Below are positions 3,558 through 21,899 of a DNA stretch of 64,000 nt, piece by piece. The notes beneath the pieces are model-generated. The model was not told the DNA's origin, searched no databases, and saw only the letters and a program-made list of their open reading frames with translations. The stretch covers positions 5,275 to 69,274 of the forward strand of contig CAYWFU010000007.1 in the NCBI GenBank assembly GCA_964457585.1, in the 5' to 3' direction. The translations under genes and the position numbers were made by a program. The DNA is from an uncultured bacterium (GTDB lineage Bacteria > JACRDZ01). Positions within the stretch are counted from its first letter, which is position 1. Every line of letters begins with the position of its first letter.

Positions 3558-3569
3558 TAGTGAATAAAT

Positions 3570-4736: not shown

Positions 4737-5461
4737 AAATAGTTATAATTGTTCAGGCGAGAATGACATCTGTTCGATTGCCAGGTAAAGTTTTAAAAGA
4801 AGTGCTTAATAAACCACTGTTAGAATATCAAATAGAAAGACTCAAACGTGTAGCTTATAAAGATGAAATAATAGTTGCAACAACTTTAAACAATACTGAT
4901 CAGCCGATTGTTGAATTATGTAATAAATTATTAATATCTTTTTATCGCGGACCAGAAGATGATGTGTTATCCCGTTATTATAATGCAGCTTTATATACAA
5001 ATGCGGATGTTATTATTAGAGTAACTTCGGATTGTCCTATCATTGATCCAAATGTAATTGATAAAACCATACGTTTTTATCTTGATAATAATTCTAAATT
5101 TGATTATGTTTCTAATTGCTTGAAACGTACTTATCCAAGAGGGATGGATACTGAAGTTTTTCCTTTTAGAGTATTAAAAGAAGCTTATAATGAAGCAACA
5201 AAAAAAATGGAGAGAGAACACGTTACTTCATTTATTCATAAACAACCTGACCGTTATCGTTTAGGTAATTTTTTTTATTATCAAGATAAAAGTAATCATA
5301 GATGGACAGTTGATATGCCTGAAGATTTTGAACTGATAAAAAAGATTATTGAAAATCTTTATATGAAAAATCAGGAATTTACTTTAGAAGATGTATTAAA
5401 AATGTTTGAAGAAGATCCTAATCTTTTTTTAATAAATGCACATATTGAACAAAAAGTTTGA
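4733..5461 (+). CDS. pseF: nonulosonic-acid cytidylyltransferase (CTP_transf_3; PseF by synteny, SpsF/KdsB-like sequence)
   Basis: MKIVIIVQARMTSVRLPGKVL N-terminal nucleotide-binding motif of the KdsB/NeuA/SpsF superfamily; sits in the canonical pseB-pseC-pseF position. Confidence 0.6.
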   Translation: MKIVIIVQARMTSVRLPGKVLKEVLNKPLLEYQIERLKRVAYKDEIIVATTLNNTDQPIVELCNKLLISFYRGPEDDVLSRYYNAALYTNADVIIRVTSDCPIIDPNVIDKTIRFYLDNNSKFDYVSNCLKRTYPRGMDTEVFPFRVLKEAYNEATKKMEREHVTSFIHKQPDRYRLGNFFYYQDKSNHRWTVDMPEDFELIKKIIENLYMKNQEFTLEDVLKMFEEDPNLFLINAHIEQKV

Positions 5462-5490
5462 AATAAATTTTTTTTAAAGGAGCCTGATAA

Positions 5491-6111
5491 ATGGGAAATT
5501 TTAAAACAGAGCAAGAAAAGTTTTGGGCTGGTAATTTTGGAGATGAATACACCTCTAGAAATCAAGGTGTAAAATGTATAGCCAGCAATCTTGCATTATT
5601 TGCAAAGATTCTAAATGAAACCAAGACTATTAAATCTGTAATTGAATTTGGTGCAAATTTAGGATTAAATTTATTAGCGATTAAACAACTTTTACCAGAG
5701 GCTAAGTTATCAGCTATAGAGATTAATTTAAAAGCAGTTGAGTATTTAAATAAAATTGACGATATAAAAGTTTACCATAAATCAATTCTCGATTTTTTAC
5801 CTGAATGTAATCACGATTTAGTGCTTATCAAAGGGGTATTGATTCATATCAATCCTGACAGCCTGCCACAAGTTTACGATTCGCTTTATAATACAAGCAG
5901 TCGTTATATTTGTATTGCTGAATATTATAATCCAAGTCCAGTTGAAGTTATTTATAGGGGTGAAAAAGGTAAATTGTTTAAACGTGATTTTGCTGGTGAA
6001 ATGTTAGATAGATTTAAAGACCTTCAGTTGGTTAATTACGGTTTTGTTTATCGCAGGGATGAAAAATTTCCGCAAGATGATATCACTTGGTTTTTATTAG
6101 AAAAAAAATAA
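5491..6111 (+). CDS. SAM-dependent methyltransferase, pseudaminic-acid-biosynthesis-associated methylase-like
   Basis: Motif I VIEFGANLGLNL; ~200 aa. Placement inside the pse cluster matches the Pse-associated methylase family as I recall it. Confidence 0.5.
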   Translation: MGNFKTEQEKFWAGNFGDEYTSRNQGVKCIASNLALFAKILNETKTIKSVIEFGANLGLNLLAIKQLLPEAKLSAIEINLKAVEYLNKIDDIKVYHKSILDFLPECNHDLVLIKGVLIHINPDSLPQVYDSLYNTSSRYICIAEYYNPSPVEVIYRGEKGKLFKRDFAGEMLDRFKDLQLVNYGFVYRRDEKFPQDDITWFLLEKK

Positions 6112-6138
6112 TTAAATTATAAGTATTGGAGATAAAAA

Positions 6139-7284
6139 ATGAATTATTGCAAGAGATGTGTTATGCCTGATACAAAACCGGATCTTTATATAGATCAGGA
6201 AGGCGTTTGTAATGCATGCAGGAGTTATGAAAATAGGAAGAGTATTAATTACGATCAACGTAAAAAAGAATTATTAACAATACTTGATAAATATAGATCA
6301 AAAGATGGAAAAAATTGGGATTGTATTATACCTGTCAGCGGGGGAAAAGATAGTCATTATCAAGTTATTAGAATGCTTCAATTTGGAATGAATCCATTAT
6401 GTGTAACAGCTTCAACATGTGACCTTTCAGAAATTGGGCGAAAAAATATTGAAAATATAAAAAAACTTGGAGTGGATTATTTGGAATTTTCTCCAGATAA
6501 AATCATAAGAAGAAAACTAAATCGAATAGGTTTAACTCAAGTTGGAGATATCTCATGGCCTGAGCATGTAGGGATATTTACTATTCCCGTAAGAGCGGCA
6601 GTTCAATATAATGTTCCTTTACTTATATGGGGAGAAAATTCGCAACATGAGTATGGTGGACCTGCATCTGCTAGTGAAAATAATATATTAAATAGGCAAT
6701 GGCTTGAAGAGTTTGGAGGGTTATTAGGATTACGTGTTTCTGATATTATTGGTTTGGATGGAATAGAAGAAAAGCATCTTATTCCTTATAATTATCCTGG
6801 TGATGAAGAACTTAAGAGAATCGGCGTTACAGGAGTATTTCTCGGGCATTATATTCCATGGGATGGTTATTCAAATGCTTTAATAGCTCAGGCTCATGGG
6901 TTTACAACATTGAATACTACTGTTGAGGGTTCTATTGTAAATTATGAGAATTTAGATAATTATCATACGGGTATTCATGATTATTTTAAGTTTTTGAAAT
7001 TTGGTTTTGGCCGTGCAACTGATATAGCCTGTCTTCATATAAGAAGAGACCGTATTACCCGTCAGGATGGTATTGAGTTGATAAATAAGCATGATGGTAA
7101 ATTCCCATGGACATATTTAGGAAAACCTATTGAACAGATTCTTTATCCGCTTGACCTAACGATTGATGAGTTTATAAAAATCTGTGATCGCTTCACAAAT
7201 AAGAAAATATTTCGTACAAATTCAAAAGGTGAGTTGTGTAAGGATAAGCATGGTAATTTAATTCTTATTAATAGTTGCAAATAA
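6139..7284 (+). CDS. N-acetyl sugar amidotransferase (WbuX/PseA-like, PP-loop ATPase)
   Basis: N-terminal Cys cluster CKRCVMPDT...CNAC, PP-loop SGGKDS. Accompanied downstream by HisH-like and HisF-like genes, as in the WbuX/Y/Z triad. Confidence 0.75.
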   Translation: MNYCKRCVMPDTKPDLYIDQEGVCNACRSYENRKSINYDQRKKELLTILDKYRSKDGKNWDCIIPVSGGKDSHYQVIRMLQFGMNPLCVTASTCDLSEIGRKNIENIKKLGVDYLEFSPDKIIRRKLNRIGLTQVGDISWPEHVGIFTIPVRAAVQYNVPLLIWGENSQHEYGGPASASENNILNRQWLEEFGGLLGLRVSDIIGLDGIEEKHLIPYNYPGDEELKRIGVTGVFLGHYIPWDGYSNALIAQAHGFTTLNTTVEGSIVNYENLDNYHTGIHDYFKFLKFGFGRATDIACLHIRRDRITRQDGIELINKHDGKFPWTYLGKPIEQILYPLDLTIDEFIKICDRFTNKKIFRTNSKGELCKDKHGNLILINSCK

Positions 7285-7347
7285 CCCAAGTTAAAGTATT
7301 GTTATAATAAAAAATTATTAATATAGTAAAAAGAAAGATGAAAAGTT

Positions 7348-8292
7348 ATGCATAATTTACCATTTCCAAGAGTTATCCGAATAGAACCGGCTAGCTTATG
7401 TAATCTAAAATGTTCACATTGTCCTACAGGGACTATTAAATTAGAACGTGGGATAATGGACATAACAACATTTCAGATTGTTATTGAAAATATAAAAAAA
7501 AATATTGATTTTATAAAAGTAGCAGTAATGTATCATGGAGGGGAACCTCTTATTAACAAAGACCTGTCCATGATGATATCAGAAGTAAAAGATATAGGTA
7601 TCCCCTTTGTAAAGACTGTATCAAACGGAATGTTTCTAAATGAAAAATCGACTGAAGCTTTAGTTAAAAGCGGGTTAGATAGTATTGAAATTTCCATTGA
7701 TGCAACAAGTTCAGAAATTAGCGATTTTGTTAGAAAAAATAGCAACTCAAAAAAAATAATGGAGAACATAAAAAGATTTATATCTATTAAAGATGAGTTA
7801 AAATTAAGCACTCCAGAGGTTTTTATTGCTACAACCCAATTCAAAGACAAAGCATCTACATTTGTTGAAGCTCAGGTTCCTAAATACCTTCTGGATGAAT
7901 TTCGGGATTTATATAAGGAGAAAAAGCTTAATTTCATATCGACTTACGCAATGCTATGGCCTCACATGGAAGTAGACACATCAATATATGATGTATTTTG
8001 TATTAAAGAGTCAAAAGGAGCCAATGATACCTGCGATCACCTTAATAATACTATGACAATAAGATGGAATGGGGATATTGTCCCTTGTTGTTATGACCTT
8101 ACAAGTAGATATGTGATTGGCAACATCCATTCTGAAAAACTTTCAGAGATATGGAATAATGCTAGGCACAAAGCAATAAGGGATGGAATATTAAACAAAA
8201 AGTTCATTGGGCCTTGCAAGAGTTGCAATATGGTATTACCTGGTAATTATATATCATTGAAAGAAGAAGTAATACGCAGAGTCACAGGATAA
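7348..8292 (+). CDS. radical SAM enzyme with C-terminal SPASM/twitch-like Cys-rich domain
   Basis: CNLKCSHCPTG (Cx3Cx2C) near N-terminus; C-terminal NGDIVPCCYD...GPCKSCN auxiliary-cluster motif. Confidence 0.75.
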   Translation: MHNLPFPRVIRIEPASLCNLKCSHCPTGTIKLERGIMDITTFQIVIENIKKNIDFIKVAVMYHGGEPLINKDLSMMISEVKDIGIPFVKTVSNGMFLNEKSTEALVKSGLDSIEISIDATSSEISDFVRKNSNSKKIMENIKRFISIKDELKLSTPEVFIATTQFKDKASTFVEAQVPKYLLDEFRDLYKEKKLNFISTYAMLWPHMEVDTSIYDVFCIKESKGANDTCDHLNNTMTIRWNGDIVPCCYDLTSRYVIGNIHSEKLSEIWNNARHKAIRDGILNKKFIGPCKSCNMVLPGNYISLKEEVIRRVTG

Positions 8293-8296
8293 TATT

Positions 8297-8911
8297 ATGA
8301 GCTTGATTGTAATAGATTATGGTATGAGCAACCTTGGATCAATAAGACGTTCATTTGAGGAATGCGGTGCAGACGTAATTGTTTCTGATGATCCTCAAGA
8401 TTTGAAATTAGCAAGTCATATTGTACTTCCCGGTGTAGGTTCGTTTTCAGATGGCATGATAAATCTCCAGAAAAAGGGATGGGTACATTCTATTAAAGAG
8501 GCGGTTGTTGAAAAGCAAATCCCTTTACTTGGTATTTGTCTAGGGATGCAGCTACTTGCAGACAAAGGCTATGAGGGTGGTAATATTACAGGTCTTGAGC
8601 TGATACATGGGGAAGTTAAAAAATTAGAAACTAATTCTCAATCAGAAAGAATTCCGCATGTGGGATGGAATGAAATTATTAAAAATATTTCATCTCCGCT
8701 TTTTTATGAAATACCGGATAGATCGGATTTTTATTTTGTTCATAGTTATCATTTTATACCTAATCAAAGAGAAAATATTTTAGCTTTTACACCATATTGT
8801 GATAATTTTGTTTCGGCTGTTGTAAATAATAATGTTTATGGAGTACAATTCCATCCGGAAAAAAGTGGACGTTTTGGAATGCGGCTTCTTAAAAATTTTA
8901 TTAATATATAA
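8297..8911 (+). CDS. imidazole-glycerol-phosphate-synthase HisH-like glutamine amidotransferase (WbuY-like)
   Basis: Class-I GATase motifs GICLGMQLL, HVGWN, FHPEKS. Confidence 0.85.
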   Translation: MSLIVIDYGMSNLGSIRRSFEECGADVIVSDDPQDLKLASHIVLPGVGSFSDGMINLQKKGWVHSIKEAVVEKQIPLLGICLGMQLLADKGYEGGNITGLELIHGEVKKLETNSQSERIPHVGWNEIIKNISSPLFYEIPDRSDFYFVHSYHFIPNQRENILAFTPYCDNFVSAVVNNNVYGVQFHPEKSGRFGMRLLKNFINI

Positions 8912-8926
8912 GGAGTTAGTAAAAAA

Positions 8927-9715
8927 TTGTTAAAAGTTCGTTTGATACCTACTTTACTATTGAAGGATGTTGGTTTAGTAAAAGGTATTGGTTTTAACAG
9001 CTGGCGCAGAGTTGGTACAGTTATGCCCGCAATCAAGGTTTATAATACCAGACAAGTGGATGAGCTTATTATTGTTGATATTACGGCATTTAGAGAAGGT
9101 CGTTTACCAGATTGTGATCAAATAAAAGATTTTTCAGCGGATTGTTTTGTACCTTTAACCATAGGCGGCGGGATACGTAGTTTTGATGATATAAGGAATT
9201 TACTTCGTGCCGGAGCAGATAAAGTATGTATCAATAGCATAACTTATGAAAAACCTGAATTTATCAAAGAAGCTGCAAATAAATTTGGTTCGCAGTGTAT
9301 AGTTGTAAGCATTGATGTGGGGAAAAAAAATGATGGAAGTTATGAGTGTTTTAGTTATTCAGGATCAAAATCAACAGGAAAAGATCCTGTAACTTGGGCT
9401 AAAGAGATTGAATCTTTAGGTGCGGGAGAATTATTAATCACATCTATTGAAAGAGATGGAACTATGCAGGGATACGATTTAGAGTTAATTAAAAAAATTA
9501 CTAAAAGTGTAAATATTCCAGTAATTGCTTCAGGTGGTTGTGGAAATTATAATCACATGTATGAAGTTATATCTTATTCCGGAGCTTCTGCTGTAGCAGC
9601 AGCAAGTATTTTTCATTTTACTCATCAAACACCAATGGAGGCAAAGCTTTTTTTATCATCTAAAGGAATGCCGGTAAGAAACGTAAATATTAATAAGAAT
9701 ATAATAGAGAATTAA
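8927..9715 (+). CDS. HisF-like cyclase subunit (WbuZ-like)
   Basis: MLKVRLIPTLLLKD N-terminus like HisF (RIIPCLDVKDG), (beta/alpha)8 pattern, GGGIRS. TTG start. Confidence 0.85.
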   Translation: MLKVRLIPTLLLKDVGLVKGIGFNSWRRVGTVMPAIKVYNTRQVDELIIVDITAFREGRLPDCDQIKDFSADCFVPLTIGGGIRSFDDIRNLLRAGADKVCINSITYEKPEFIKEAANKFGSQCIVVSIDVGKKNDGSYECFSYSGSKSTGKDPVTWAKEIESLGAGELLITSIERDGTMQGYDLELIKKITKSVNIPVIASGGCGNYNHMYEVISYSGASAVAAASIFHFTHQTPMEAKLFLSSKGMPVRNVNINKNIIEN

Positions 9716-9717
9716 TT

Positions 9718-10752
9718 ATGTCGATAAATGTTATGTTTAGAGCAGATTCGTCATCGATTATTGGTACAGGTCATATAATGCGTTGTTTGACTTTGGCAGA
9801 TTCTCTAAAAGAAAAAGGTGTTGAAATAAGTTTTATTAGTATTAAAGAAAAAGGAAATTTAATACAATTAATTGAAGAAAAAGGATATAAGGTTTATAAA
9901 TTACCTATAAAATCTGATGAGAAAAAAACCTTAGATATATTAAAAAACCAAAAATCTACAATAGATTGGCTGATAATAGACCATTATAATATTGATACTT
10001 TTTGGGAAACCAAATTTAATAAATTTGTTAAAAAAATAATGGTAATTGATGATCTGGCAAATAGAAAACATAATTGTGAGCTTTTATTAGATCAAAATTA
10101 TTATCTTAAAAAAAATAGATATAAAGGATTAATTTCTAATAAATGTAAGCAATTAATTGGCCCTGATTTTGCATTAATTAAAAAAGAGTTTTTAAAGTTA
10201 CGAAAAAAATTAGAACCACGTACAGGAAAAGTAAAACAAATATTGGTTTTTATGGGTGGTGCAGATTTTACAAATGAAACTTCAAAAATACTAAAAGCTA
10301 TTAAATTGTTGAATAATCCTGGTATTAAATTTAATATTGTTATAGGCCCTGCTAATCAGTATTACAATAAATTAAAAAAAGAAATAGCCAAAATATCAAA
10401 TGCTGTTTGTTTTTATAATATAAATAATATGGCCGAATTAATGTTTAATGCTGATTTATGTATCGGAGCATGCGGTTCTACAACATGGGAAAGATTAATT
10501 ATGGGTATTCCAAGTATTGTTATTATTATTGCTGATAATCAAAAAGAAAATGCTGAAAGTCTTGATAAAAAAGAATGTATAATAAATCTTGGATTTTATA
10601 ATAAGGTTACTATTAAAAACGTATTTACAAAAATAGAATATTTAATTAACAATCCTAATATTATTAAACGAATGAGCAAAAAAGCGCAAAAAATTGTTGA
10701 TGGCAAAGGTACTGGCAGGGTTACAAATATTTTATTAAAGGCAGGTCAATAA
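9718..10752 (+). CDS. pseG: UDP-2,4-diacetamido-2,4,6-trideoxy-beta-L-altropyranose hydrolase, PseG
   Basis: FRADSSSIIGTGHIMRCLTLA matches the PseG N-terminal signature [21 protein letters not shown]; GT-B-like length. Confidence 0.8.
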   Translation: MSINVMFRADSSSIIGTGHIMRCLTLADSLKEKGVEISFISIKEKGNLIQLIEEKGYKVYKLPIKSDEKKTLDILKNQKSTIDWLIIDHYNIDTFWETKFNKFVKKIMVIDDLANRKHNCELLLDQNYYLKKNRYKGLISNKCKQLIGPDFALIKKEFLKLRKKLEPRTGKVKQILVFMGGADFTNETSKILKAIKLLNNPGIKFNIVIGPANQYYNKLKKEIAKISNAVCFYNINNMAELMFNADLCIGACGSTTWERLIMGIPSIVIIIADNQKENAESLDKKECIINLGFYNKVTIKNVFTKIEYLINNPNIIKRMSKKAQKIVDGKGTGRVTNILLKAGQ

Positions 10753-11456
10753 TGTCAATAAAAAACAGGATAGTAATTGCAACTATTAAGTCATGGAATA
10801 TAGCAAACGCAATAAAATTTAAGAATATTCATAGCGAAGAATTTGAAACGTTAATAATTACTAAAAAAGAAGATTTGAATTTAAATTATATAAAAGATTT
10901 TGATCCAAAATATATTTTTTTCCCGCATTGGTCATGGATAATTAAAAATGATATATACGATAATTTTGATTGTATAGTTTTTCATATGACAGATTTACCA
11001 TTTGGAAGAGGAGGCAGTCCCCTTCAGAATTTAATTATAAATAAAATTTACAATACAAAAATTTCTGCCATTAAAGTAGACGGTGAAATAGATACTGGTA
11101 AAATTTATTTTAAAGAAGATTTTTATATAGGATTGGGTAATGCAGATGAGATCTTTCAAAGAATTTCAGAATTAATATTTTTTAAAATGATACCAAATAT
11201 TTTGAAAAACAATATAATTCCACAAGAACAAACAGGCGATATAACTTATTTCAACAGAAGAACTCCGGAAGATAGCGATATTTCTAAAGCTAGTTTAAAC
11301 AATTTTGATGATTTATATGATTTTATTAGAATGTTAGATGGGGAAGGTTATCCAAATGCTTTTTTAAAACTTGGAAAATTTAAAATATCCTTTAAAGAAA
11401 TATCTGAAAAATCTGATAAAGTTACAGGAAGATTTGAAATTGAGGAGGAAAAATGA
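10752..11456 (+). CDS. formyltransferase-domain protein (Fmt/PurN N-terminal-like)
   Basis: HMTDLPFGRGGSPLQNLII resembles the formyltransferase catalytic core (His...Asp, SLLP-like loop); overlaps neighbours by ATGA. Confidence 0.55.
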   Translation: MSIKNRIVIATIKSWNIANAIKFKNIHSEEFETLIITKKEDLNLNYIKDFDPKYIFFPHWSWIIKNDIYDNFDCIVFHMTDLPFGRGGSPLQNLIINKIYNTKISAIKVDGEIDTGKIYFKEDFYIGLGNADEIFQRISELIFFKMIPNILKNNIIPQEQTGDITYFNRRTPEDSDISKASLNNFDDLYDFIRMLDGEGYPNAFLKLGKFKISFKEISEKSDKVTGRFEIEEEK

Positions 11457-12130
11457 AAAGAGTTCTTATTGTTGCTGCTCATCCTGACGATGAAGTTTTA
11501 GGTTGTGGCGGAACTGCTGCGAGATTAATAAAAAACAACTATGAAATATTTACTCTTATTCTTGGCGAAGGAATTACTTCAAGAGATTATATAAAAAATA
11601 TAGAAAATCGAAAAAAAGAAATTGATGAATTGAAACATGAAATAAAACAAGCAAATAAAATTATTGGGATAAAAAACGTTTTCACTTTTGATTTTCCTGA
11701 TAACAGGTTTGATACAATTGCTTTATTGGATATTGTAAAAGCTATTGAAAAAATAAAAAATGAAGTTAACCCGGAAATTATATTTACACATTATGAAAAA
11801 GATTTAAACATTGATCATAAGATTACTTTTAACGCAGTAATGACTGGAACCAGACCATTTGGTAAAGAAATTGTAAAAGAAATATATTCTTTTGAGATTC
11901 CGTCTTCAACAGAATGGAATTGTCCTTTGAGTTTCTCCCCTGATGTTTTTTTTGATATTGATAATACACTTGAATGTAAATTAAAAGCAATAGAAGCATA
12001 TAAAACAGAATTAAAAGAATTCCCTCATCCAAGATCTATTGAAGGGATTAAACGGCACGCAAAATATTGGGGTATATGTGTTGGTTTAAATCAAGCCGAA
12101 GCATTCAAAAGTATAAGAGTAATAAAATAA
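11453..12130 (+). CDS. PIG-L/LmbE family N-acetylglucosaminyl deacetylase
   Basis: VLIVAAHPDDEVLGCGGT zinc-binding AHPDDE motif. Confidence 0.85.
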   Translation: MKRVLIVAAHPDDEVLGCGGTAARLIKNNYEIFTLILGEGITSRDYIKNIENRKKEIDELKHEIKQANKIIGIKNVFTFDFPDNRFDTIALLDIVKAIEKIKNEVNPEIIFTHYEKDLNIDHKITFNAVMTGTRPFGKEIVKEIYSFEIPSSTEWNCPLSFSPDVFFDIDNTLECKLKAIEAYKTELKEFPHPRSIEGIKRHAKYWGICVGLNQAEAFKSIRVIK

Positions 12131-12142
12131 TTATAATAATTA

Positions 12143-12691
12143 TTGAATATACTGGTTAACTCAATGAAAAAATTAAAAAAAAATTTTAAGATTGAAGACG
12201 GCATTTTTATTAATTTTGTTAATATTAATGTTGAAGAAAAAGAAATAGTTCGAAATTGGAGAAATGATAAAAATATCAGACAATGGATGTACAATGATCA
12301 TAAAATTTCTTCTTTGGAGCATGCTGAATTTTTAGAAAAATTAAAATATGATAAAAAAAATTTTTATTGGCTTATAAAAAAAAATCAAGAGTATATAGGT
12401 GTTATTTATTTTAATAAAGTTGATTTAAAAAATAAAAATGCATATTTTGGTATTTATACTAATCCTGAAAACTATAAAAAAGGGAATGGGCAATTAATTT
12501 TTAGATATTCAAAAAAAATAATTTTTGAAATAGCTAATTTTCATACAATAAAATTGGAAGTAATTGAAAATAATCATAAAGCTATAAATTTTTATAAAAA
12601 AGTTGGATTTTTCAAAGAAGGAACTTTAAAAGAATTTATTTTTAAAGATGGAAAATGGCTTGATGTAATTATTATGGGCATTGTAAATTAA
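12143..12691 (+). CDS. pseH: GNAT N-acetyltransferase, PseH-like
   Basis: VRNWRND..IRQWM, EHAEFLEKL, YWLI....IGVIYFN......AYFGIY parallels Campylobacter PseH (KWRNHPDINQFM ... FGLY). Likely true start at Met 12164. Confidence 0.75.
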   Translation: MNILVNSMKKLKKNFKIEDGIFINFVNINVEEKEIVRNWRNDKNIRQWMYNDHKISSLEHAEFLEKLKYDKKNFYWLIKKNQEYIGVIYFNKVDLKNKNAYFGIYTNPENYKKGNGQLIFRYSKKIIFEIANFHTIKLEVIENNHKAINFYKKVGFFKEGTLKEFIFKDGKWLDVIIMGIVN

Positions 12692-12727
12692 TATATTATA
12701 TCAAATAATAAAAAAGGGGAAGAATAG

Positions 12728-13780
12728 TTGAATCCAATTCAAATTAGTAATAAAAAAATAGGGCAGGGTTATGAACCATTTATTATTGCTGAAATGTCAG
12801 GGAATCATAATCAGTCATTAGAAAGAGCTTTAGCTATAATTGAAGCAGCAGCAAAAACAGGTGTCCATGCTTTGAAGCTGCAAACTTATACGGCAGATAC
12901 AATGACTTTAGATATTGAAGAAGGGGATTTTTTTATTGAAGATCCAAAAAGTTTATGGAAAGGAACTTCATTATATAAACTTTACCAAAAAGCTTACACT
13001 CCATGGGAATGGCATGAGCCTATTTTTAAGCGGTGTAAAGAATTGGGCTTAATCGCGTTTAGTACTCCTTTTGATGAGACATCTGTGGATTTTTTAGAAA
13101 AATTGAATGTCCCAGCATATAAAATAGCATCATTTGAAAATAATCATATACCTTTAATTCGTAAAGTTGCATCTACGGGAAAACCTATGATTATATCTAC
13201 CGGTATGGCAACAATAGCAGAGCTTGATGAAACAATCAGAACAGCAAGAAATTCCGGCTGTAATGATATAATATTGCTCAAATGTACAAGTACATATCCT
13301 GCTACACCGGAAGATGCAAATATCATGACCATACCGCATATGCACAAATTATTCAATGTGCAGGTTGGCTTATCCGACCACACAATGGGAATAGGTGTTG
13401 CAATAGCAAGTGTAACATTGGGAGCAACAGTTGTTGAAAAACATTTCACACTAAGACGTGCTGATGGTGGTGTGGATTCAGCATTTTCAATAGAACCGGA
13501 AGAAATGCAAATGCTTGTAAAAGAAACTAATAATGCATGGCAGGCGTTAGGAAAAGTTAATTACGGCCCAACTAAAACAGAAAAATCATCGATGAGATAT
13601 CGAAGATCTCTTTATGTGATTCAAGATATTGAAGCAGGAGGGCAATTCACCCATGATAATATTAAGGCAATTAGACCGGGTTTTGGTTTACCAACTAAAT
13701 ATATTGAAATAATTATTGGAAGAAAAGCAAAAAAAATAATTAAAAAAGGCACTCCTTTATATTGGGATTTAATTTTTTAA
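12728..13780 (+). CDS. pseI: pseudaminic acid synthase, PseI (NeuB family, full length with C-terminal SAF domain)
   Basis: PFIIAEMSGNHNQSLERALAIIEAAAKTGVHALKLQTY NeuB TIM-barrel signature plus C-terminal antifreeze-like domain; TTG start. Confidence 0.85.
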   Translation: MNPIQISNKKIGQGYEPFIIAEMSGNHNQSLERALAIIEAAAKTGVHALKLQTYTADTMTLDIEEGDFFIEDPKSLWKGTSLYKLYQKAYTPWEWHEPIFKRCKELGLIAFSTPFDETSVDFLEKLNVPAYKIASFENNHIPLIRKVASTGKPMIISTGMATIAELDETIRTARNSGCNDIILLKCTSTYPATPEDANIMTIPHMHKLFNVQVGLSDHTMGIGVAIASVTLGATVVEKHFTLRRADGGVDSAFSIEPEEMQMLVKETNNAWQALGKVNYGPTKTEKSSMRYRRSLYVIQDIEAGGQFTHDNIKAIRPGFGLPTKYIEIIIGRKAKKIIKKGTPLYWDLIF

Positions 13781-14611: not shown

Positions 14612-14654
14612 TTTAATATCTAATCACCATTCTTAAAATTCAAGGATAAAATAA

Positions 14655-15944
14655 ATGAAGTTTCGTTATATGAAAAGATTTATCGATGAATTAATAGAAT
14701 ATTTTCTTGTGAATTTAAAGGGTTATAAGAATTCAAAAGATTCTGAACTATTAAACAATACTATTTCTTTGAAAAATAAGTACAAAGGAGAGCGGCTGTT
14801 TATATTTTTTTCAGGGGTGAGTATAAAAAAAATAAATTTGGATATTTTCAACAACGAATATACAATGGCAACAAATTATTTTGTACTTCATTATAAGTTT
14901 AAAAAACTTAATTTTGATTTTTATAGTATGGTTGCTTCTTGGAATATGAAAGAAGCCATTAACTATGAGTGGCTTACCGGTATTGTCTATAATAAAGTGA
15001 AACCGGAAATGAAGATATTTCTTCATTCCTCATCGCATAGCTGGCTTTCAAATATACCTTCATATAAACCCGAGATTACGTATTATGTTTCACCCTTACC
15101 TAATGGATTTCCTGATTATTGCAATGTGCAGGATTCAATGAAAGGAGTGTTCACTTGTAGCATATCTTTAGCAATACATATGGGATTTAAAGAAATTTAC
15201 CTTGTTGGTTCAGATTATACAAAATCACCGCAAATTGTAGGACATTTCTATGATGGGGAATATGTTAAGCAAGAGCCAACCAAAGAATTGTTAGAAATGC
15301 ACACTAATGTAAATGAATATGCGAAAAAAAATGGGGTAAAAATTTTTAATATAATTGAAGACGATTTTAAAAGTCCCATATTTGAGGGTATTAATATAAA
15401 TGACATTTATGCTCTTTTTAATAATCAAAATAAACAGTCTTATACTGATAAATTGATTGATAGGATCGATGCTTTAGTATTCGATTTTGATGGTGTATTG
15501 ACAGACAATTTAGTATATGTTGATCAGAACGGTAATGAACAGGTTTGCTGTAATCGAGGTGATGGACTTGCTTTTGATGCGCTTCGCAAGCTTAATATAA
15601 AGACTTTTATTATATCTACCGAAACAAATTCTGTTGTGGCAGAACGGGCAAAAAAATTAAAAATTCCTGTACAACAAGGTATTGCCAATAAACTGGAAGC
15701 ATTAATATCTTTAGCAAAAAAAGAAAATATAGATATAGCTCGTATATTGTATGTTGGAAATGATTTAAACGATCTGGAAGTTATGAAAACATGCGGGTTG
15801 TCTGCCTGTCCTGCGGATAGTCATGAAAGAATTAAAGAGATTAGCCGTTTTAAATTAAAAACTTTAGGTGGAAAAGGACTCGTTCGAGAGTTAGTAGAAG
15901 ATTTATTAAAAATAAATATTGAAGAAATTCTATATAAAAAATAA
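14655..15944 (+). CDS. fusion protein: N-terminal DUF115/MptE-like (Maf-type) domain + C-terminal KdsC-type HAD sugar-acid phosphate phosphatase
   Basis: N-terminal half: LFIFFSGVSI ... SISLAIHMGFKEIYLVGSDYT, the DUF115 pattern. C-terminal ~165 aa: ALVFDFDGVLTDN...GDGLA...YVGNDLNDLEVM...ADSH, the KdsC HAD motifs I-IV. Confidence 0.7.
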   Translation: MKFRYMKRFIDELIEYFLVNLKGYKNSKDSELLNNTISLKNKYKGERLFIFFSGVSIKKINLDIFNNEYTMATNYFVLHYKFKKLNFDFYSMVASWNMKEAINYEWLTGIVYNKVKPEMKIFLHSSSHSWLSNIPSYKPEITYYVSPLPNGFPDYCNVQDSMKGVFTCSISLAIHMGFKEIYLVGSDYTKSPQIVGHFYDGEYVKQEPTKELLEMHTNVNEYAKKNGVKIFNIIEDDFKSPIFEGININDIYALFNNQNKQSYTDKLIDRIDALVFDFDGVLTDNLVYVDQNGNEQVCCNRGDGLAFDALRKLNIKTFIISTETNSVVAERAKKLKIPVQQGIANKLEALISLAKKENIDIARILYVGNDLNDLEVMKTCGLSACPADSHERIKEISRFKLKTLGGKGLVRELVEDLLKINIEEILYKK

Positions 15945-15964: not shown

Positions 15965-16795
15965 ATGTTTATTATTGCAGAGATAGGAATCAATCATAAT
16001 GGTGATTTAAAAATCGCCAAACAGCTTATTGATGTTGCAAAGATCGCTGGTTGTGATGCAGTCAAATTCCAAAAAAGAACCATAGATTTGGTTTACACTA
16101 AGGAATTATTGGATTCACCGCGGGAAAGTCCATGGGGAAAAACACAGCGAGCCCAAAAAGAAGGCTTAGAGTTTAATTATGCTCAGTATAAAGAAATAGA
16201 CGATTATTGTCGTCATAAAGAAATTGAATGGTTTGCGTCTGCCTGGGATCATGAAAGCCAGAAATTCATAAGACAGTTTGATTTTAAACATAATAAAGTT
16301 GCATCAACAATGATAGTTGATGAGAAATTTTTAAAAATGGTTGCGAGCGAAGGAAAACATACATTTATATCTACAGGGATGAGTTCCCTGGATATAATCG
16401 ATAAAGCTGTTCAAATTTTCAGGGATATGAAATGTTCATTTGAACTTATGCATTGTGTTGCTACATATCCTATGAAAGATGAAGATGCAAATCTTAATTG
16501 TATTCCTATGCTTCGTGAGCGATATAAATGCGATGTTGGATATAGCGGACATGAAACAGGTTTGGCTATATCCTACGCTGCTGCGGCATTTGGAATATCC
16601 TCACTTGAAAGACATATAACATTAGACCGCGCTATGTATGGTTCCGATCAATCTGCTTCTGTTGAACCTATAGGTATTATGCAATTGGTTGGAGGTGTGC
16701 GAAAAATTGAACGTGTGCTTGGAAATGGTAAAAAAACAATTATAGAAGCAGAAATTCCAATTGCAAAAAAACTTCGTGCGCATATTCAAGGGTAA
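15965..16795 (+). CDS. NeuB-family sugar-phosphate/PEP-condensing synthase, short form lacking the SAF domain
   Basis: MFIIAEIGINHNGDLKIAKQLIDVAKIAGCDAVKFQK NeuB catalytic barrel; only 276 aa, no C-terminal antifreeze-like domain. Confidence 0.75.
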   Translation: MFIIAEIGINHNGDLKIAKQLIDVAKIAGCDAVKFQKRTIDLVYTKELLDSPRESPWGKTQRAQKEGLEFNYAQYKEIDDYCRHKEIEWFASAWDHESQKFIRQFDFKHNKVASTMIVDEKFLKMVASEGKHTFISTGMSSLDIIDKAVQIFRDMKCSFELMHCVATYPMKDEDANLNCIPMLRERYKCDVGYSGHETGLAISYAAAAFGISSLERHITLDRAMYGSDQSASVEPIGIMQLVGGVRKIERVLGNGKKTIIEAEIPIAKKLRAHIQG

Positions 16796-16806
16796 AGGGG
16801 AAAATT

Positions 16807-18246
16807 ATGATTATTAAAGATAAACGTAAATTTTTAAATGAAGAAACATGTTATAGTCCTGATTTTCATATAGCGGACTATGAATTGGGAAAATATTCTT
16901 TTAACGAATCCGCACTTTCAAATCTTGGAATTAAATCAACTATGACCAAATCTGAAGACTTATGGAAACGCGGGCGTAAAATTATTCCCTGTGGTACTCA
17001 GACACTTGGAAAGAGCCCGATAGGTTTTATTGATGGCGTTGCCCCTAAATATTTATCACATGGAAAAGGCGGCCGAGTCTGGGATGTTGACGGAAATGAA
17101 TATATAGATTGCTGGCTTGCCTGTTTACCAATAACGTTTGGATATCGTGTTGAAGAAATAGATAATGCTATAATCGAGCAGGTAACAAAAAGCGGAATTA
17201 CTTTTTCCCTAATGCATTCATTAGAGGTGGAAGTTGCTGAAATGCTGCAGGAAGATATTTCAATTGCTGAACAAATAAGGTTTACAAAAAACGGTTCTGA
17301 TGTTTGTGAAGCTGCTGTTCGTTTAGCAAGATATTTAACAAAACGAGATAAAGTTATTACTTTAGGTTATCATGGTTTTCATGATTGGTATATAGCAAGC
17401 ACTGATCGTAATGGCGGAATTCCTGATTGCATAAAAGAAAGAACTTTGCGTTTTGCTTATAATAATATTGATAATTTAAAAAAATTGTTTGATACAAATA
17501 AAAATGAGATAGCCTGTGTAATTATGGAGCCTACTATTTTTGAAGCTCCTAAGGATGATTTTTTAGCTAAAGTAAAAGATGTTTGTCATAAAAATGGAGC
17601 ATTATTGATTTTTGATGAAATGCTCACTGGTTATAGATTCTCAACTAACGGTGCAATGTCTTTTTTTGAAGTTGAGCCGGATTTAGCTACTTTCGGAAAA
17701 GGAATTGCTAATGGAATGCCGATAGGCATTCTCGTTGGATTAGAAAAACACATGCGAGGATTTGAAGAAGTTTTTCTTTCAAGCACTTATGGCGGGGAGA
17801 CTCTTACTCTTGCGGCAACATTAGCAGGTCTTAAGTATCACCGTAAGAATGATGTTGTTGGCCACATGTGGCAAATAGGGAAAATTGTTCTGGATAATTT
17901 CAGACAATCGATCAAAAAATTTAATTTAGAAAAAAACATATCAGCTATTGGTTACCCTGTACGACAAACATTGACTTTTAAAAAAGATAATGGGGAACCT
18001 GATTATAGCTTAGCAGGTCTTTTTCAACAGGAAATGCTGAAAAATGGTGTGCTATGCAATTCAGGACTTGGTTTTTGTCATAAACATTCTGCTAATGATG
18101 CTATGCATGTAGCAAGAAGTTTTGACAAAGCATGCTTATTAATGCAAGAAGCTATAAAATCCGGTAACCTTGAACGTTATTTAAAAGGTAACCCTGCGCA
18201 ACCTGTTTTTCGTGGATTGCGCGATCAGAAAGTAACATCAAATTAA
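16807..18246 (+). CDS. class-III PLP aminotransferase (glutamate-1-semialdehyde aminomutase-like)
   Basis: Fold-type I class III pattern; the catalytic-Lys region contains DEMLTGYRFSTNGAMSFF, with the lysine in ATFGKGIANGMPIGIL. Confidence 0.75.
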   Translation: MIIKDKRKFLNEETCYSPDFHIADYELGKYSFNESALSNLGIKSTMTKSEDLWKRGRKIIPCGTQTLGKSPIGFIDGVAPKYLSHGKGGRVWDVDGNEYIDCWLACLPITFGYRVEEIDNAIIEQVTKSGITFSLMHSLEVEVAEMLQEDISIAEQIRFTKNGSDVCEAAVRLARYLTKRDKVITLGYHGFHDWYIASTDRNGGIPDCIKERTLRFAYNNIDNLKKLFDTNKNEIACVIMEPTIFEAPKDDFLAKVKDVCHKNGALLIFDEMLTGYRFSTNGAMSFFEVEPDLATFGKGIANGMPIGILVGLEKHMRGFEEVFLSSTYGGETLTLAATLAGLKYHRKNDVVGHMWQIGKIVLDNFRQSIKKFNLEKNISAIGYPVRQTLTFKKDNGEPDYSLAGLFQQEMLKNGVLCNSGLGFCHKHSANDAMHVARSFDKACLLMQEAIKSGNLERYLKGNPAQPVFRGLRDQKVTSN

Positions 18247-18255
18247 AAGGACATC

Positions 18256-19083
18256 ATGCTAGGAAGTTCATTGTTTGGAGTAATGCAGGGCAGATTACTT
18301 CCTAAATATAAAGGACGTTATCAAGCCCATCCATTAGGATATTGGCAGGAAGAATTTTTTATTGCTGCAAAATTTGGTTTGGATATTATTGAATTTATTC
18401 TTGATTATGAAGATGCTGAAAAAAATCCAATTTTATTTGATCCTGATTCAATATGTAAAATAATTGAAAAAACAGGAGTGAAAGTAAAAAGCGTATGCGC
18501 AGATTATTTTATGGAAGCTCCTGTATATTCAAACCCTGATAGCAGTGCTATTCTTGAACGTTTAATTCGAAATGCGAGTATTGTTGGAATACGTGATATT
18601 GTTATCCCATGTGTGGATAAATCCAGTCTTCATGGACGCAAAGAAGCAGCATCATTTATTGAAAATTTGCTTGCTGTCATTCCTTTAGCAGAGAAAACAG
18701 AAGTGAATTTGGCTCTTGAAACTGATTTGCCCCCGGATGATTTTGCATGGTTGTTATCACAATTTAATTCTAAAGTAGTGACAGTTAATTATGATACCGG
18801 TAACAGCGCTTCTTCAGGGTATAATCTGATTGAAGAATTTGAAGCCTATGGTGATCGCATTACTGATATACATATAAAAGATAGAATTTGCGGAGGAGGC
18901 TCGGTATTATTAGGTACCGGCAATACAGACTTTGATGCACTTTTTTTATTTTTATCAAAAAACAAATTTAGTGGACCATTAATTATGCAAGCTTATCGAG
19001 ATGACGAGGGTATTGAGATTTTCAAACAACAACAAAAGTGGATACAAGATCGGTATAATAGATTTATAGAAAGGATTAAATAA
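18256..19083 (+). CDS. xylose-isomerase-like TIM-barrel sugar(-phosphate) isomerase/epimerase
   Basis: Metal-ligand motifs LALETD and DIHIKD typical of the AP_endonuc_2 / xylose isomerase-like TIM barrel. Confidence 0.55.
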   Translation: MLGSSLFGVMQGRLLPKYKGRYQAHPLGYWQEEFFIAAKFGLDIIEFILDYEDAEKNPILFDPDSICKIIEKTGVKVKSVCADYFMEAPVYSNPDSSAILERLIRNASIVGIRDIVIPCVDKSSLHGRKEAASFIENLLAVIPLAEKTEVNLALETDLPPDDFAWLLSQFNSKVVTVNYDTGNSASSGYNLIEEFEAYGDRITDIHIKDRICGGGSVLLGTGNTDFDALFLFLSKNKFSGPLIMQAYRDDEGIEIFKQQQKWIQDRYNRFIERIK

Positions 19084-19844
19084 TGTCAAATGTAAACGTA
19101 GTTGCTTTAATTCAAGCTCGGGGAGGTTCTAAAGGTGTACCGGGAAAAAATATACGACCATTGGGTGGATACCCTTTAATAGCATGGTCAGTAGTAGCAT
19201 GCAAATTATGTAAAAATATTGACCGAGTTGTTATTTCAACAGACAGCCATGAAATCGCTGATATAGGAAAGAAATATGGGGCAGAAGTTCCTTTTATGCG
19301 TCCTGCTGAATTCGCTACTGATACAGCTAATGATTTAGATGTTATTAAGCATGCATTAGGATGGTTCAAAGATGTTGAAAAAAGAATTCCTGATTTAATA
19401 ATTCAAATTAGACCAACGACGCCGCTGCGAGAACCATCTTTAATGGATGATGCAATTCGTTTGATGCAGAAACATCCTGAAGCTACTGGATTATTATCGG
19501 TATTTGAAATGCCTGAATCTCATTGCAAAATGTTCGGCATGAAGAAAGATGGGTTCTTACATGGATTATGTCCTGATGATCCGCGTCCTGAATATTTTAA
19601 TTTACCACGTCAAGTATTTCCTCCAACATATTTTGCAGGCGGATATATTGATATTATCAAACCAGGCACAGTATTAGATTTGAAAATGTGTTATGGTGAT
19701 CGTATACTTGGTTTTATTTCACCAGATAGCGGTGAAGTTGATAGTCCGGAAGATTTTAAACGTTTAGAATATTTAATGAGCGATTATGGGCAAACAGTAT
19801 ATGAATATTTAAGGAAAAATTTTTATGAAAAAAACTGTAATTGA
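19083..19844 (+). CDS. acylneuraminate (CMP-nonulosonate) cytidylyltransferase, NeuA family
   Basis: VALIQARGGSKGVPGKNIRPLGGYPLIAWSV classic NeuA N-terminus. Confidence 0.8.
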   Translation: MSNVNVVALIQARGGSKGVPGKNIRPLGGYPLIAWSVVACKLCKNIDRVVISTDSHEIADIGKKYGAEVPFMRPAEFATDTANDLDVIKHALGWFKDVEKRIPDLIIQIRPTTPLREPSLMDDAIRLMQKHPEATGLLSVFEMPESHCKMFGMKKDGFLHGLCPDDPRPEYFNLPRQVFPPTYFAGGYIDIIKPGTVLDLKMCYGDRILGFISPDSGEVDSPEDFKRLEYLMSDYGQTVYEYLRKNFYEKNCN

Positions 19845-20652
19845 TATATTTGATTTGACTGGAAGAGTAGCTATTATTACAGGCGGCGCAGGTTTGCTTG
19901 GTATAAAACATGCTGAAGCTATATCAGAATTAGGCGGGATTCCGGTTCTACTTGATATATCAAAAGAGGCAATAGATGCAGCAGTTGTTAAAATAAATAA
20001 GCCTTGTGCGGGACTTATAGCTGATATTACCGATGAAAAAGCATTAACTGACACGCTAGAACGTGTAGTACATGATTATAATCGGATTGATATTTTAATC
20101 AATAATGCGGCAGATAATCCAAAAGTCGAGAGTAAAGAATTTGCGAGCAAACAATGGTGCAGGCTGGAAAATTTTCCTCTTAACGCATGGGAAAAAAGTA
20201 TTTCTGTAGGATTAACAGGAGCATTCCTTTGTTCAAAAGTTTTTGGTACTGAAATGGCAAAACGTGGTAAAGGAGTTATTCTCAATATTGCTTCAGACCT
20301 TGCTGTTATTGCTCCCGATCAACGAATTTACCGCACACCAGGATTATCTATAGAAAACCAACCTGTTAAGCCTGTTACTTATTCAGTGGTAAAAGCTGGA
20401 TTGATAGGACTAACACGTTATATTGCCACTTATTGGAATGAATTTGGTGTGCGCTCAAATGCACTTGTGCCGGGTGGCGTATACAATGAACAGCCGGATG
20501 ATTTTGTTCAGCGTTTGACCAATCTTATTCCTATGGGACGAATGGCAAATGCTGATGAATATAAAGCCGCAGTGGCATTTTTAGTTTCCGATGCCTCATC
20601 TTATATGACAGGCGCCTCTCTGGTAATCGATGGTGGAAGAACCGCATGGTGA
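19825..20652 (+). CDS. short-chain dehydrogenase/reductase (classical SDR)
   Basis: TGGAGLLG dinucleotide motif, NNAA, catalytic YSVVK (YxxxK). Confidence 0.85.
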   Translation: MKKTVIDIFDLTGRVAIITGGAGLLGIKHAEAISELGGIPVLLDISKEAIDAAVVKINKPCAGLIADITDEKALTDTLERVVHDYNRIDILINNAADNPKVESKEFASKQWCRLENFPLNAWEKSISVGLTGAFLCSKVFGTEMAKRGKGVILNIASDLAVIAPDQRIYRTPGLSIENQPVKPVTYSVVKAGLIGLTRYIATYWNEFGVRSNALVPGGVYNEQPDDFVQRLTNLIPMGRMANADEYKAAVAFLVSDASSYMTGASLVIDGGRTAW

Positions 20653-21899
20653 GTCCTTCAGATAATTTAGTGCAAAATAACAATCAAAAATGGTATTTAT
20701 CATATAGCATAAATTTATCAGAAAAAAGTATTTATACATTTTTATTTGTTTTATCATTGATTTACTCAACACTATTAATCAGAATAATGAATCCCTTAGT
20801 CAATAATGAGCATCTTACGTATTCCTTATTGGTGATAGAGGAATATGTTTTATTGTTCATTTTATTAGTTTGTTATTTTTTACGGAATTCGATAAAAATA
20901 CCTGATATTACAATGACAGTGCTGGTGATAGCATATATGTATTTTTCAGCATGGATAAAACATGATGCGGATATTTATTATTTAAAATTATCAATATTTT
21001 TTTTTCTTCACTATTTAGTTTATATTAATATTTTTGAACGATTGGATAAACGTATAGTTTTTTATATTCTTATGCTGTATGGATTTCTTATTTCAATATT
21101 CTATATTAATTTAATGTATTCAAATGTTAATATTATTGCATCGACAGAAGTTGCAGGACATCTCGGCAAAAGAGGTTCCTCTGAAGAATTTGGTATGCTT
21201 ACTAATGTAAATAATATTTCAATGATATTAGTTGGAATTTCAACACTTTTAGTAGTTATAAAACATAATTTTGAGATTAGTAAAAAAATGATATTATTAT
21301 CATTAATTCTACATTTAACAGTATTATTAGTTTTAATAATCAATGCAACCGTTTCAGCTATTTTATTTTTCATTTCTTTATTAATTTATGATCTTTATAA
21401 AATGTATGGTTTTTCTAGTTTCGCAGTTTTATTATTAATTATAAGTGTAATAGGCTATTTTGGATTTAATATATCTAATTTATTAATATTTCAACGTGCG
21501 GAGTCCGGTGCTACATTTGATATTAGAATAATAAATATGATGCAATCACTTGATATATTTAAAAATAATCCATTTTTTGGCATTGGTCATTCACTCATTG
21601 CTGAAATAGAGACAGGATTGGTTTATTCTACTGATCATAATTTTTACACAAAACTTTTGGGTGCTGAAGGAATGATTGGTTTTTTATTATATGGTTGTTT
21701 TTTTTATAATTTTTTACGTTCACGTAGAGTATATTTCAAAGGTCTAAACCTGTTACGTTTCTATTTTTTATTTTTCTTGATTTTCACACCCGCCGGTTGT
21801 TCAGTTATGATGATTGTTGCAGCTTTAATTTATGAGATTAGCGGATATTATTCAATTTCAAATAATTCTCATATAAACGAAAATGGATATTTGATTTAA
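20646..21899 (+). CDS. polytopic membrane protein, Wzy polymerase / O-antigen-ligase-like
   Basis: About 10 hydrophobic helices with one larger loop; the only Wzy-like candidate in the locus. Real start probably an internal Met. Confidence 0.45.
   Translation: MVSPSDNLVQNNNQKWYLSYSINLSEKSIYTFLFVLSLIYSTLLIRIMNPLVNNEHLTYSLLVIEEYVLLFILLVCYFLRNSIKIPDITMTVLVIAYMYFSAWIKHDADIYYLKLSIFFFLHYLVYINIFERLDKRIVFYILMLYGFLISIFYINLMYSNVNIIASTEVAGHLGKRGSSEEFGMLTNVNNISMILVGISTLLVVIKHNFEISKKMILLSLILHLTVLLVLIINATVSAILFFISLLIYDLYKMYGFSSFAVLLLIISVIGYFGFNISNLLIFQRAESGATFDIRIINMMQSLDIFKNNPFFGIGHSLIAEIETGLVYSTDHNFYTKLLGAEGMIGFLLYGCFFYNFLRSRRVYFKGLNLLRFYFLFFLIFTPAGCSVMMIVAALIYEISGYYSISNNSHINENGYLI

Follow-up and report, generated by a model that had tools for sequence, protein, structure and literature searches.

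The gene at positions 14655..15944 (+ strand) of a 64,000-nucleotide stretch of contig CAYWFU010000007.1 from an uncultured bacterium (the window, numbered from its first letter) codes for a two-domain protein whose architecture was found nowhere else in protein, genome and metagenome searches. Its N-terminal DUF115/GT42-like domain of sialyltransferase fold (aa 1-258; 14655..15428, + strand) is followed by a three-residue junction (aa 259-261, NKQ; 15429..15437, + strand) and by a C-terminal KdsC-type capless (C0) HAD phosphatase domain (aa 262-429; 15438..15941, + strand), the latter delimited by profile, PDB and Foldseek matches and by alignments. The protein is predicted to work like a GT42/Maf-type transferase of a cytidine monophosphate (CMP)-activated ulosonate joined to a BT1713-like phosphatase of 2-keto-3-deoxynononic acid 9-phosphate (Kdn-9-P). 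It is probably a bifunctional enzyme that serves the branch for a Kdn-like ulosonic acid in a surface-polysaccharide locus of Wzx/Wzy type, more than 50 kb long.

Integrity, junction and rarity of the fusion gene

The fusion gene, a program-listed open reading frame (ORF), runs from an ATG through 429 codons to a TAA and translates without internal stop into a single 429-aa product. The ATG is directly preceded by an in-frame TAA, and the Shine-Dalgarno-like sequence AAGGA (14642..14646, + strand; read from the sequence) lies 8 nt 5' of it. The motifs quoted in the first-pass annotation were all located in the translation: LFIFFSGVSI (aa 48-57) and LAIHMGFKEIYLVGSDYT (aa 172-189) in the N half, DFDGVLTDN (aa 277-285), GDGLA (aa 302-306) and GNDLNDLEVM (aa 368-377) in the C half. 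The guanine-plus-cytosine contents of the two halves are 28.6 % and 31.6 %, and that of the window is 30.7 %. Both halves retain all family-invariant residues, hence the gene is not a decaying pseudogene.

Stand-alone relatives of the N-domain terminate within a few residues of aa 255-261, and the stand-alone HAD protein of locus L112 starts exactly at fusion aa 262. Such an essentially linker-free junction, next to which the structural model has its lowest-confidence stretch (aa 260-265), is what the loss of a stop codon would leave where one gene runs up to the next. This is the most likely origin of the fusion, the transferase gene having been the upstream one and the HAD gene its immediate neighbour. 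The same match of ends is also compatible with an error of base calling or consensus at a stop codon, joining abutting genes for a ~260-aa DUF115 protein and a ~165-aa HAD protein in this metagenome-derived assembly. The fusion protein (P0001) is indeed a singleton cluster from one NCBI contig without annotation, each relative of either half is separate from the other half, and the junction codons CAA, AAA, CAG and TAT are one substitution away from a stop. An artefact is nevertheless quite unlikely. The frameshift considered at the first pass was not found across the junction, where both halves share one frame and stops abound in the other two. The HAD domain has no in-frame ATG of its own and no Shine-Dalgarno-like motif 5' of it, unlike the neighbouring genes, which have clear ones. 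Moreover, substitution errors are rare in assembled consensus sequence, and a true mutation at this place would be a real fusion. The gene is best described as a real-looking, intact unit, well supported but singleton, that combines known parts in a single genome.

The first-pass annotation knew of no earlier description of this architecture, and the searches agree. A full-length query against 5.8 billion proteins retrieved, at full coverage, only the fusion protein itself. Two cytidylyltransferase+HAD proteins (P0049 and P0119, ~70 % query coverage) were discarded as second match, their alignments being gap-rich BLAST over-extensions with no real similarity to the N-domain. The KdsC-type HAD is absent from all 20 N-domain matches and from the 150 best of ~13,800 family representatives. 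The 106 loci recovered from 185,579 species-representative genomes and from Joint Genome Institute (JGI) metagenomes each match one half only, and none of the stop-to-stop ORFs in 109 loci carries both domains. No description of a fusion of DUF115, PF01973 or a sialyltransferase to KdsC was found in the literature. The sialyltransferase-like plus KdsC-type fusion is thus unreported, its halves occupying a gene each in all other occurrences of the pathway that were found.

KdsC-type HAD domains do occur in other fusions, with cytidylyltransferase, SIS or methyltransferase partners (well over a hundred in the search, HAD C-terminal, 40-58 % identity). Known cases such as the cytidylyltransferase+HAD 'acylneuraminate cytidylyltransferase', mammalian CMAS, and SIS+HAD or methyltransferase+HAD proteins likewise place the HAD domain C-terminal to an enzyme of an ulosonic-acid pathway. 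The protein described here differs from them in its N-terminal partner, a transferase-fold domain, a combination not found in any search. A 365-aa Methyltransf_11+KdsC-HAD fusion is encoded in locus L005 (6388-7485).

The two domains and their predicted activities

The assignment of the C half to KdsC-type HAD phosphatases, made at the first pass, is borne out by concordant profile, PDB and structural matches. Its aa 273-419 match the NCBIfam model of Kdn-9-P phosphatases from Bacteroides (NF058599; E 5e-31, 107.9 bits) and the KdsC model TIGR01670 (E 5e-29, 101.2 bits, just under the cut-off of 106.95). Matched PDB sequences include 3mmz (E 2e-31), BT1713 of Bacteroides thetaiotaomicron (3e81; E 6e-24), many KdsC structures and mouse CMP-sialic acid synthetase (3ewi; E 1e-14). 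The full-length AlphaFold (AF2) model has a mean predicted local distance difference test score (pLDDT) of 87.9, exceeding 90 over most of aa 270-420. Its C half shows the capless Rossmann-like core fold of ~160 aa, with Foldseek template modelling (TM) scores to target of 0.77-0.88 against 3mmz, KdsC and BT1713. Since 107.9 bits lie below the equivalog cut-off of NF058599 (180 bits), the domain is not filed as an orthologue or equivalog of BT1713, although it is predicted to work like one. It shares with BT1713 the capless C0 fold, the DxD motif and a Glu/Lys pair, and differs from it in sequence (34 % identity), in carrying GND for GDD and in being the C-terminal domain of a larger protein. 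Another shared feature is the gene neighbourhood, as the BT1713 gene adjoins genes for a NeuB-family synthase and a cytidylyltransferase.

The HAD residues identified in the C half are D277/D279 (DxD), S321, E323, K334, K346 and G368-N-D-L-N-D373. Motif I (D277-F-D279-G-V), in which D277 takes the nucleophile position, is invariant in alignment A3, and the motif III Lys (K346) is intact. Residue-level alignment with 3e81 equates E323 and K334, both invariant in A3, with E56 and K67 of BT1713, the positions mutated in the PDB entries 4hgq/4hgr (E56A, K67A). Kdo-8-P (3-deoxy-D-manno-octulosonic acid 8-phosphate) phosphatases have Arg and Thr at these positions, and the Kdo-8-P-type protein 4nav carries an Arg equivalent to Glu56. 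The Glu56/Lys67 pair reportedly (Lu et al. in 2009, Daughtry et al. in 2013) separates Kdn-9-P from Kdo-8-P phosphatases. The Glu323/Lys334 pair would accordingly narrow the substrate class of the fusion phosphatase to the Kdn-9-P type and not the Kdo-8-P type. KdsC-type proteins are homotetramers whose active site is completed by a neighbouring subunit.

The N half had been read at the first pass as a DUF115 domain. This reading stands through the fold and through relatives, and not through a direct score (see below): the link to PF01973 (MptE-like / DUF115 / Maf_flag10) appears to be transitive, 13 of the 17 aligned family members matching it (best E 5e-26). An AF2 model of the N-domain alone (pLDDT 86.9; predicted TM score, pTM, 0.86) has Maf, MptE and Cst-I/II as structural matches, and its fold is common to the solved PF01973 members Maf (5mu5) and MptE (8sd5). 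The modelled fold would place the domain in the DUF115/GT42 superfamily without separating transferase from pyrophosphokinase; sequence profile and gene context make that separation and favour a transferase. The family profile matches Cst-II (E 2e-9), the lipooligosaccharide (LOS) alpha-2,3-sialyltransferase 9c08 (E 4e-6), Cst-I (E 6e-5), Maf (E 1.7e-3) and MptE (E 0.09), while the single N-domain sequence has no match to Pfam CST-I at E<=0.01. Judged by profile, the N-domain would be a bare catalytic domain of ~260 aa that is nearer to GT42 sialyltransferases than to Maf or MptE.

Residues conserved in the family are G45, R47, G54, S56, E68, M176-G-F-K-E-I-Y-L-x-G185, H197 and N232. Two motifs are shared with Cst-II. 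The first reads G-x-R-C-F-I-x3-G-x-S in the family and IIAGNGPS in Cst-II, the second A-x2-M-G-F-K-E-I-Y-L-x-G-x-D and ALGYKEIYLSGID, respectively. H197, conserved in at least 90 % of the family, lies 10 residues past the GxD motif; the catalytic general base of Cst-II is His188. Campylobacter jejuni Cst-II/Cst-I (GT42; 1ro7, 2p2v) resemble the N-domain in their variant GT-A sialyltransferase fold of ~260 aa, in the G-x-G-x-S nucleotide-binding motif and in a (M/L)G(F/Y)KEIYL-x-G-x-D motif with a conserved His after it. The N-domain departs from them by its low identity (~17 %), a lid region ~25 residues shorter, an extra N-terminal helix pair (aa 2-37) and its fusion to a phosphatase. Cst-II/Cst-I are encoded in a LOS locus, the fusion protein in a Wzy polysaccharide locus.

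A CTP_transf_3 cytidylyltransferase gene is present in the fusion operon and beside N-domain homologues, and from this gene context the donor of the predicted transferase would be a CMP-activated ulosonate. The acceptor is most likely a glycan and not a protein, because the domain lacks the flanking domains of Maf and lies in a Wzz/Wzy polysaccharide locus. Maf flagellin nonulosonate transferases (5mu5) exceed 600 aa and carry flagellin-binding domains at both ends, which the 258-aa N-domain lacks. They are found in flagellar glycosylation islands, whereas the neighbours of the fusion gene code for Wzz, a pseudaminic-acid pathway, Wzy, GT2/GT4 transferases and a WcaJ-like initiating transferase; the window ORFs that were scanned include no flagellar gene. 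For want of the flanking domains and of a flagellar context the fusion protein is not a Maf.

A search with the N-domain alone retrieved a small set of relatives, mostly stand-alone proteins of 237-285 aa (three of ~380 aa). The exhaustive hidden Markov model (HMM) search with alignment A2 gave 13,820 family representatives at E<=1e-3. About half of the best 150 of these are stand-alone, the others belonging to larger proteins (2,455 aa at most) that have 2-4 copies of the domain. The mid-sized members scanned have PF01973 only, plus GT2 in one case. The giant proteins of 1,000-2,455 aa with 2-4 DUF115/GT42-like copies (P0140-P0287 list) are candidate multi-site polymerases for ulosonate-containing polymers.

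Several observations weigh against a bifunctional transferase-phosphatase. Exact-sequence look-ups of the fusion protein and of both flanking proteins found no other assembly. The direct match of the N-domain to PF01973 (aa 116-188) is sub-threshold (22.0 vs 34.6 bits), fold searches place the pyrophosphokinase MptE as high as the sialyltransferases, and the HHalign alignment of the family with Cst-II is confident in the first motif only, leaving the putative catalytic His unaligned. The GDD of motif IV in BT1713 and KdsC is replaced by GND (GNDLND) in the HAD domain. The full-length model, examined for the domain interface raised at the first pass, has none that is defined with confidence (pTM 0.62, against 0.86 for the N-domain alone). 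Finally, both enzymatic activities are predictions, for the fusion halves and for their close homologues alike.

The standing of MptE in the fold searches raises the question of whether the N-domain, instead of being a glycosyltransferase, phosphorylates or pyrophosphorylates an intermediate of the pathway as a nucleotide-dependent enzyme of MptE/TPK type. This is very improbable. The MptE profile match (E 0.09) covers 30 residues and that to Cst-II (E 2e-9) ~150 residues, and the (G/A)xGxS and GFKEIYLxGxD motifs are shared with Cst-II. In addition, the fusion is the sole protein of sialyltransferase fold in a locus that makes a CMP-sugar, and relatives of the N-domain are fused to TagF-like polymerases or GT2 domains or form multi-copy giants.

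Motif IV bears on a second possibility, that of a real fusion in which the HAD domain would serve chiefly to oligomerise the transferase and not as a catalyst. In mouse CMP-sialic acid synthetase, which the C half matches (3ewi, above), the KdsC-like C-terminal domain reportedly has this role. The first motif IV Asp is replaced by Asn in the fusion protein, and KdsC-type proteins and Cst-II are both tetramers. This role is unlikely, given that neither the DxD nor the motif III Lys nor the Glu/Lys pair in contact with the substrate has been altered and that the window holds no other KdsC-type gene to serve the pathway. Note that GNDxND is shared without exception by 3mmz and by all close stand-alone homologues of the fusion HAD, which are kept beside NeuB2, arguing for an enzymatic role.

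The separate halves in other loci and the proposed pathway

The adjacency to a NeuB-like synthase gene reported at the first pass is confirmed. The gene for NeuB2, a short NeuB-family synthase of 276 aa (15965..16795, + strand; PF03102 E 7e-67, no SAF domain, AGGAGG Shine-Dalgarno), starts 21 nt downstream of the fusion gene, and NeuB2 is presumed to produce the substrate of the fusion phosphatase. It is followed, all on the + strand, by genes for a class-III (GSA-like) aminotransferase (16807..18246; orthologues in L034, L110, L112), an AP_endonuc_2 / COG1082 TIM-barrel protein resembling sugar-phosphate isomerases/epimerases (18256..19083; 53-59 % identical orthologues in the same three loci), the CTP_transf_3 cytidylyltransferase, or CMP-ulosonate synthetase (19083..19844), an SDR oxidoreductase (19825..20652; 48-60 % orthologues beside N-domain homologues) and a Wzy-type polymerase (20646..21899; weak Pfam Wzy_C match, homologues in L001/L110), the last indicating a glycan acceptor.

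The closest relatives of the HAD domain are stand-alone proteins of ~155-180 aa (48-61 % identity), and their gene lies immediately 5' of a NeuB2 gene (product 40-79 % identical) in at least 22 independent metagenome loci, most of them marine. These pairs are commonly followed by cytidylyltransferase, TIM barrel, aminotransferase and SDR genes. In L034 (3-3922) the order is HAD, NeuB2 (71 %), TIM barrel (53 %), class-III aminotransferase (45 %) and cytidylyltransferase (60 %). The closest relatives of the N-domain (P0002 and P0121, 41-44 %) adjoin an SDR of 48-50 % identity in loci that also code for a NeuB+TIM fusion, a separate TIM barrel (56-57 %), a class-III aminotransferase (44 %), a cytidylyltransferase (46-53 %) and Wzy, with no pseudaminic-acid (Pse) genes within 10 kb of the homologue. 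The full unfused set is found in L112/L113, where one strand carries HAD (61 %), NeuB2 (67 %), TIM barrel (59 %) and two SDR genes, and a gene fusing cytidylyltransferase to aminotransferase and, after it, one for an N-domain homologue that stands alone (32 %) are transcribed divergently. In L050/L051 a stretch of 5 kb holds HAD, a NeuB-like gene and an N-domain homologue that is likewise unfused. As the halves repeatedly co-occur as separate genes, the fused domains are recurrent neighbours which, on this genomic evidence, would belong to one pathway.

The two kinds of domain also come together in ~30 Clostridia/gut-metagenome loci, which encode a TagF-like+DUF115 protein and a KdsC-like HAD along with a cytidylyltransferase and an HMGL-like protein. 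In the Clostridia/human-gut loci (L008 5478-10489; L007-L024, L067-L092) the TagF-like glycerophosphotransferase+DUF115 protein has ~700 aa and the HMGL-like (pyruvate-aldolase-type) protein 537 aa. They could make a teichoic-acid-like polymer with a CMP-activated keto-acid sugar produced without NeuB.

The set formed by HAD, SAF-less NeuB, COG1082, aminotransferase, cytidylyltransferase and SDR recurs in the window (15965-20652), L034 (3-3922), L112 (3504-10828) and L030-L061. It probably makes a tailored Kdn-like ulosonic acid and is apparently uncharacterised. Further pairwise fusions within the pathway are NeuB+SAF+AP_endonuc_2 (628 aa; L110 3519-5405), CTP_transf_3+Aminotran_3 (717 aa; L112 7691-9844) and the Methyltransf_11+KdsC-HAD protein of L005. 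The ulosonic-acid pathway seems unusually prone to gene fusion, and the CTP_transf_3+Aminotran_3 protein hints that transamination may act on the CMP-sugar.

In the proposed pathway NeuB2, helped by the COG1082 TIM-barrel protein, would condense phosphoenolpyruvate and a sugar phosphate into an ulosonate phosphate, the TIM barrel possibly supplying, or acting with, the NeuB2 substrate. NeuB-type synthases are similarly linked with AP_endonuc_2/COG1082 in the Serratia marcescens KL1/KL2 loci of a Kdn-containing capsule, where the NeuB-COG1082 protein is experimentally tied to, and required for, Kdn/N-acetylneuraminic acid (Neu5Ac) production (PMC9000132). The two are separate genes in the window and fused in L110; the words 'phosphatase' and 'sialyltransferase' are absent from the text of that paper. 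The KdsC-type domain, whose identity is seen, would then remove the phosphate through the Asp277 nucleophile, the Glu323/Lys334 pair and the conserved HAD-NeuB adjacency pointing to a Kdn-9-P-type substrate. From the gene content, SDR, class-III aminotransferase(s), acetyltransferase and methyltransferases would tailor the sugar and the cytidylyltransferase would make the CMP-sugar. The N-domain, assigned by fold and profile, is predicted to take the ulosonate from its CMP carrier and add it to the nascent repeat unit, and Wzy would then polymerise these units.

The first-pass annotation expected the fusion to couple dephosphorylation physically to transfer. This coupling is better understood as co-expression or co-assembly. 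Tailoring and CMP activation separate the two reactions, which are not consecutive, hence the fusion cannot channel product directly from phosphatase to transferase. Fixed stoichiometry, and perhaps a KdsC-tetramer assembly platform, is a more plausible benefit than substrate channelling.

More tentatively, the fusion may be regarded as a Rosetta stone for a widespread pathway that makes an amino- or otherwise tailored Kdn-like sugar and has a small DUF115/GT42-like clade as its transferases. If so, this clade, thousands of proteins strong and in part contained in giant multi-copy polymerases, would amount to an as yet unclassified family of glycan-directed bacterial 'sialyltransferases'. Bacterial nonulosonic-acid transferases are hard to spot by sequence, and many polysaccharide loci with a CMP-ulosonate have none assigned. 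The fusion and the recurrent co-occurrence of its halves provide genomic evidence for small DUF115/GT42-like proteins as the missing transferases of Kdn-like pathways, and the single polypeptide is suited to both phosphatase and transferase assays. As an event in one genome the fusion is of limited general importance; its value lies in the functional link and in a longer list of fusion partners of the KdsC module.

The surface-polysaccharide locus in the window

All genes of the locus of more than 50 kb that contains the fusion gene are on the + strand. No second DUF115-like or KdsC-like domain was found in the window, so the fusion protein holds the sole copy of each; redundancy through another DUF115 or KdsC gene of the window is thereby discarded. 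Housekeeping genes were not recognised anywhere in the window. A Wzz gene (1233) is followed by a complete pseudaminic-acid pathway (2541-13780), with genes for PseB (2541), PseC (3570), PseF (4733), a PseG-like protein (9718), a GNAT protein (12143) and PseI (12728-13780). The block also holds a radical-SAM gene, a HisH/HisF-like pair, a formyltransferase-like gene and a PIG-L gene. The pair (8297-9715) codes for a HisH-like glutamine amidotransferase and a HisF-like cyclase. Such pairs are associated with acetamidino-sugar formation, and by analogy the Pse derivative of the locus may carry an acetamidino group. The gene of a TylF-like methyltransferase (13847) lies between this block and the fusion gene.

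The position of the fusion gene between pseI and NeuB2 would fit an N-domain that transfers pseudaminic acid from the 2541-13780 pathway, the two halves then serving different sugars, and the window yielded no further candidate for a Pse transferase. We consider this rather improbable, since the closest stand-alone N-domain homologues are in NeuB2/TIM/aminotransferase/cytidylyltransferase/SDR loci that are free of Pse genes over +/-10 kb, and since ORFs assigned to no family could fill this role. The latter are 5491-6111, 6139-7284 and 27130-28341 (no family match in Pfam) and 46443-47414 (no family match in NCBIfam, the only collection concerned), all in the range of 206-403 aa. The pseudaminic-acid transferase that is missing, or the flippase, may be among them. 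A transferase of the Kdn-like sugar remains the preferred assignment of the N-domain.

Downstream of the Wzy gene are an acetyltransferase gene (21902), methyltransferases, aminotransferases, B12-radical-SAM enzymes and GT2/GT4 transferases, as well as genes for a PglK/MsbA-like ABC transporter (42476), WecB (50128) and a WcaJ-type initiating transferase (52587), all on the + strand. The locus has four B12-binding radical-SAM genes (25607-26995, 28352-30166, 40988-42430, 47428-48921) and one SPASM radical-SAM gene (7348-8292), an unusually high count that suggests several C-methylations or other radical modifications of sugars. Beyond the locus, ORFs of 1,391 aa (55945-60120, - strand) and 516 aa (60253-61803, + strand) have no NCBIfam match at E<=1e-5. 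Within it, a 710-aa ORF (44197-46329) is a two-domain oxidoreductase fusion, composed of a Zn-alcohol-dehydrogenase-like N half and a Gfo/Idh/MocA (inositol 2-dehydrogenase-like) C half.

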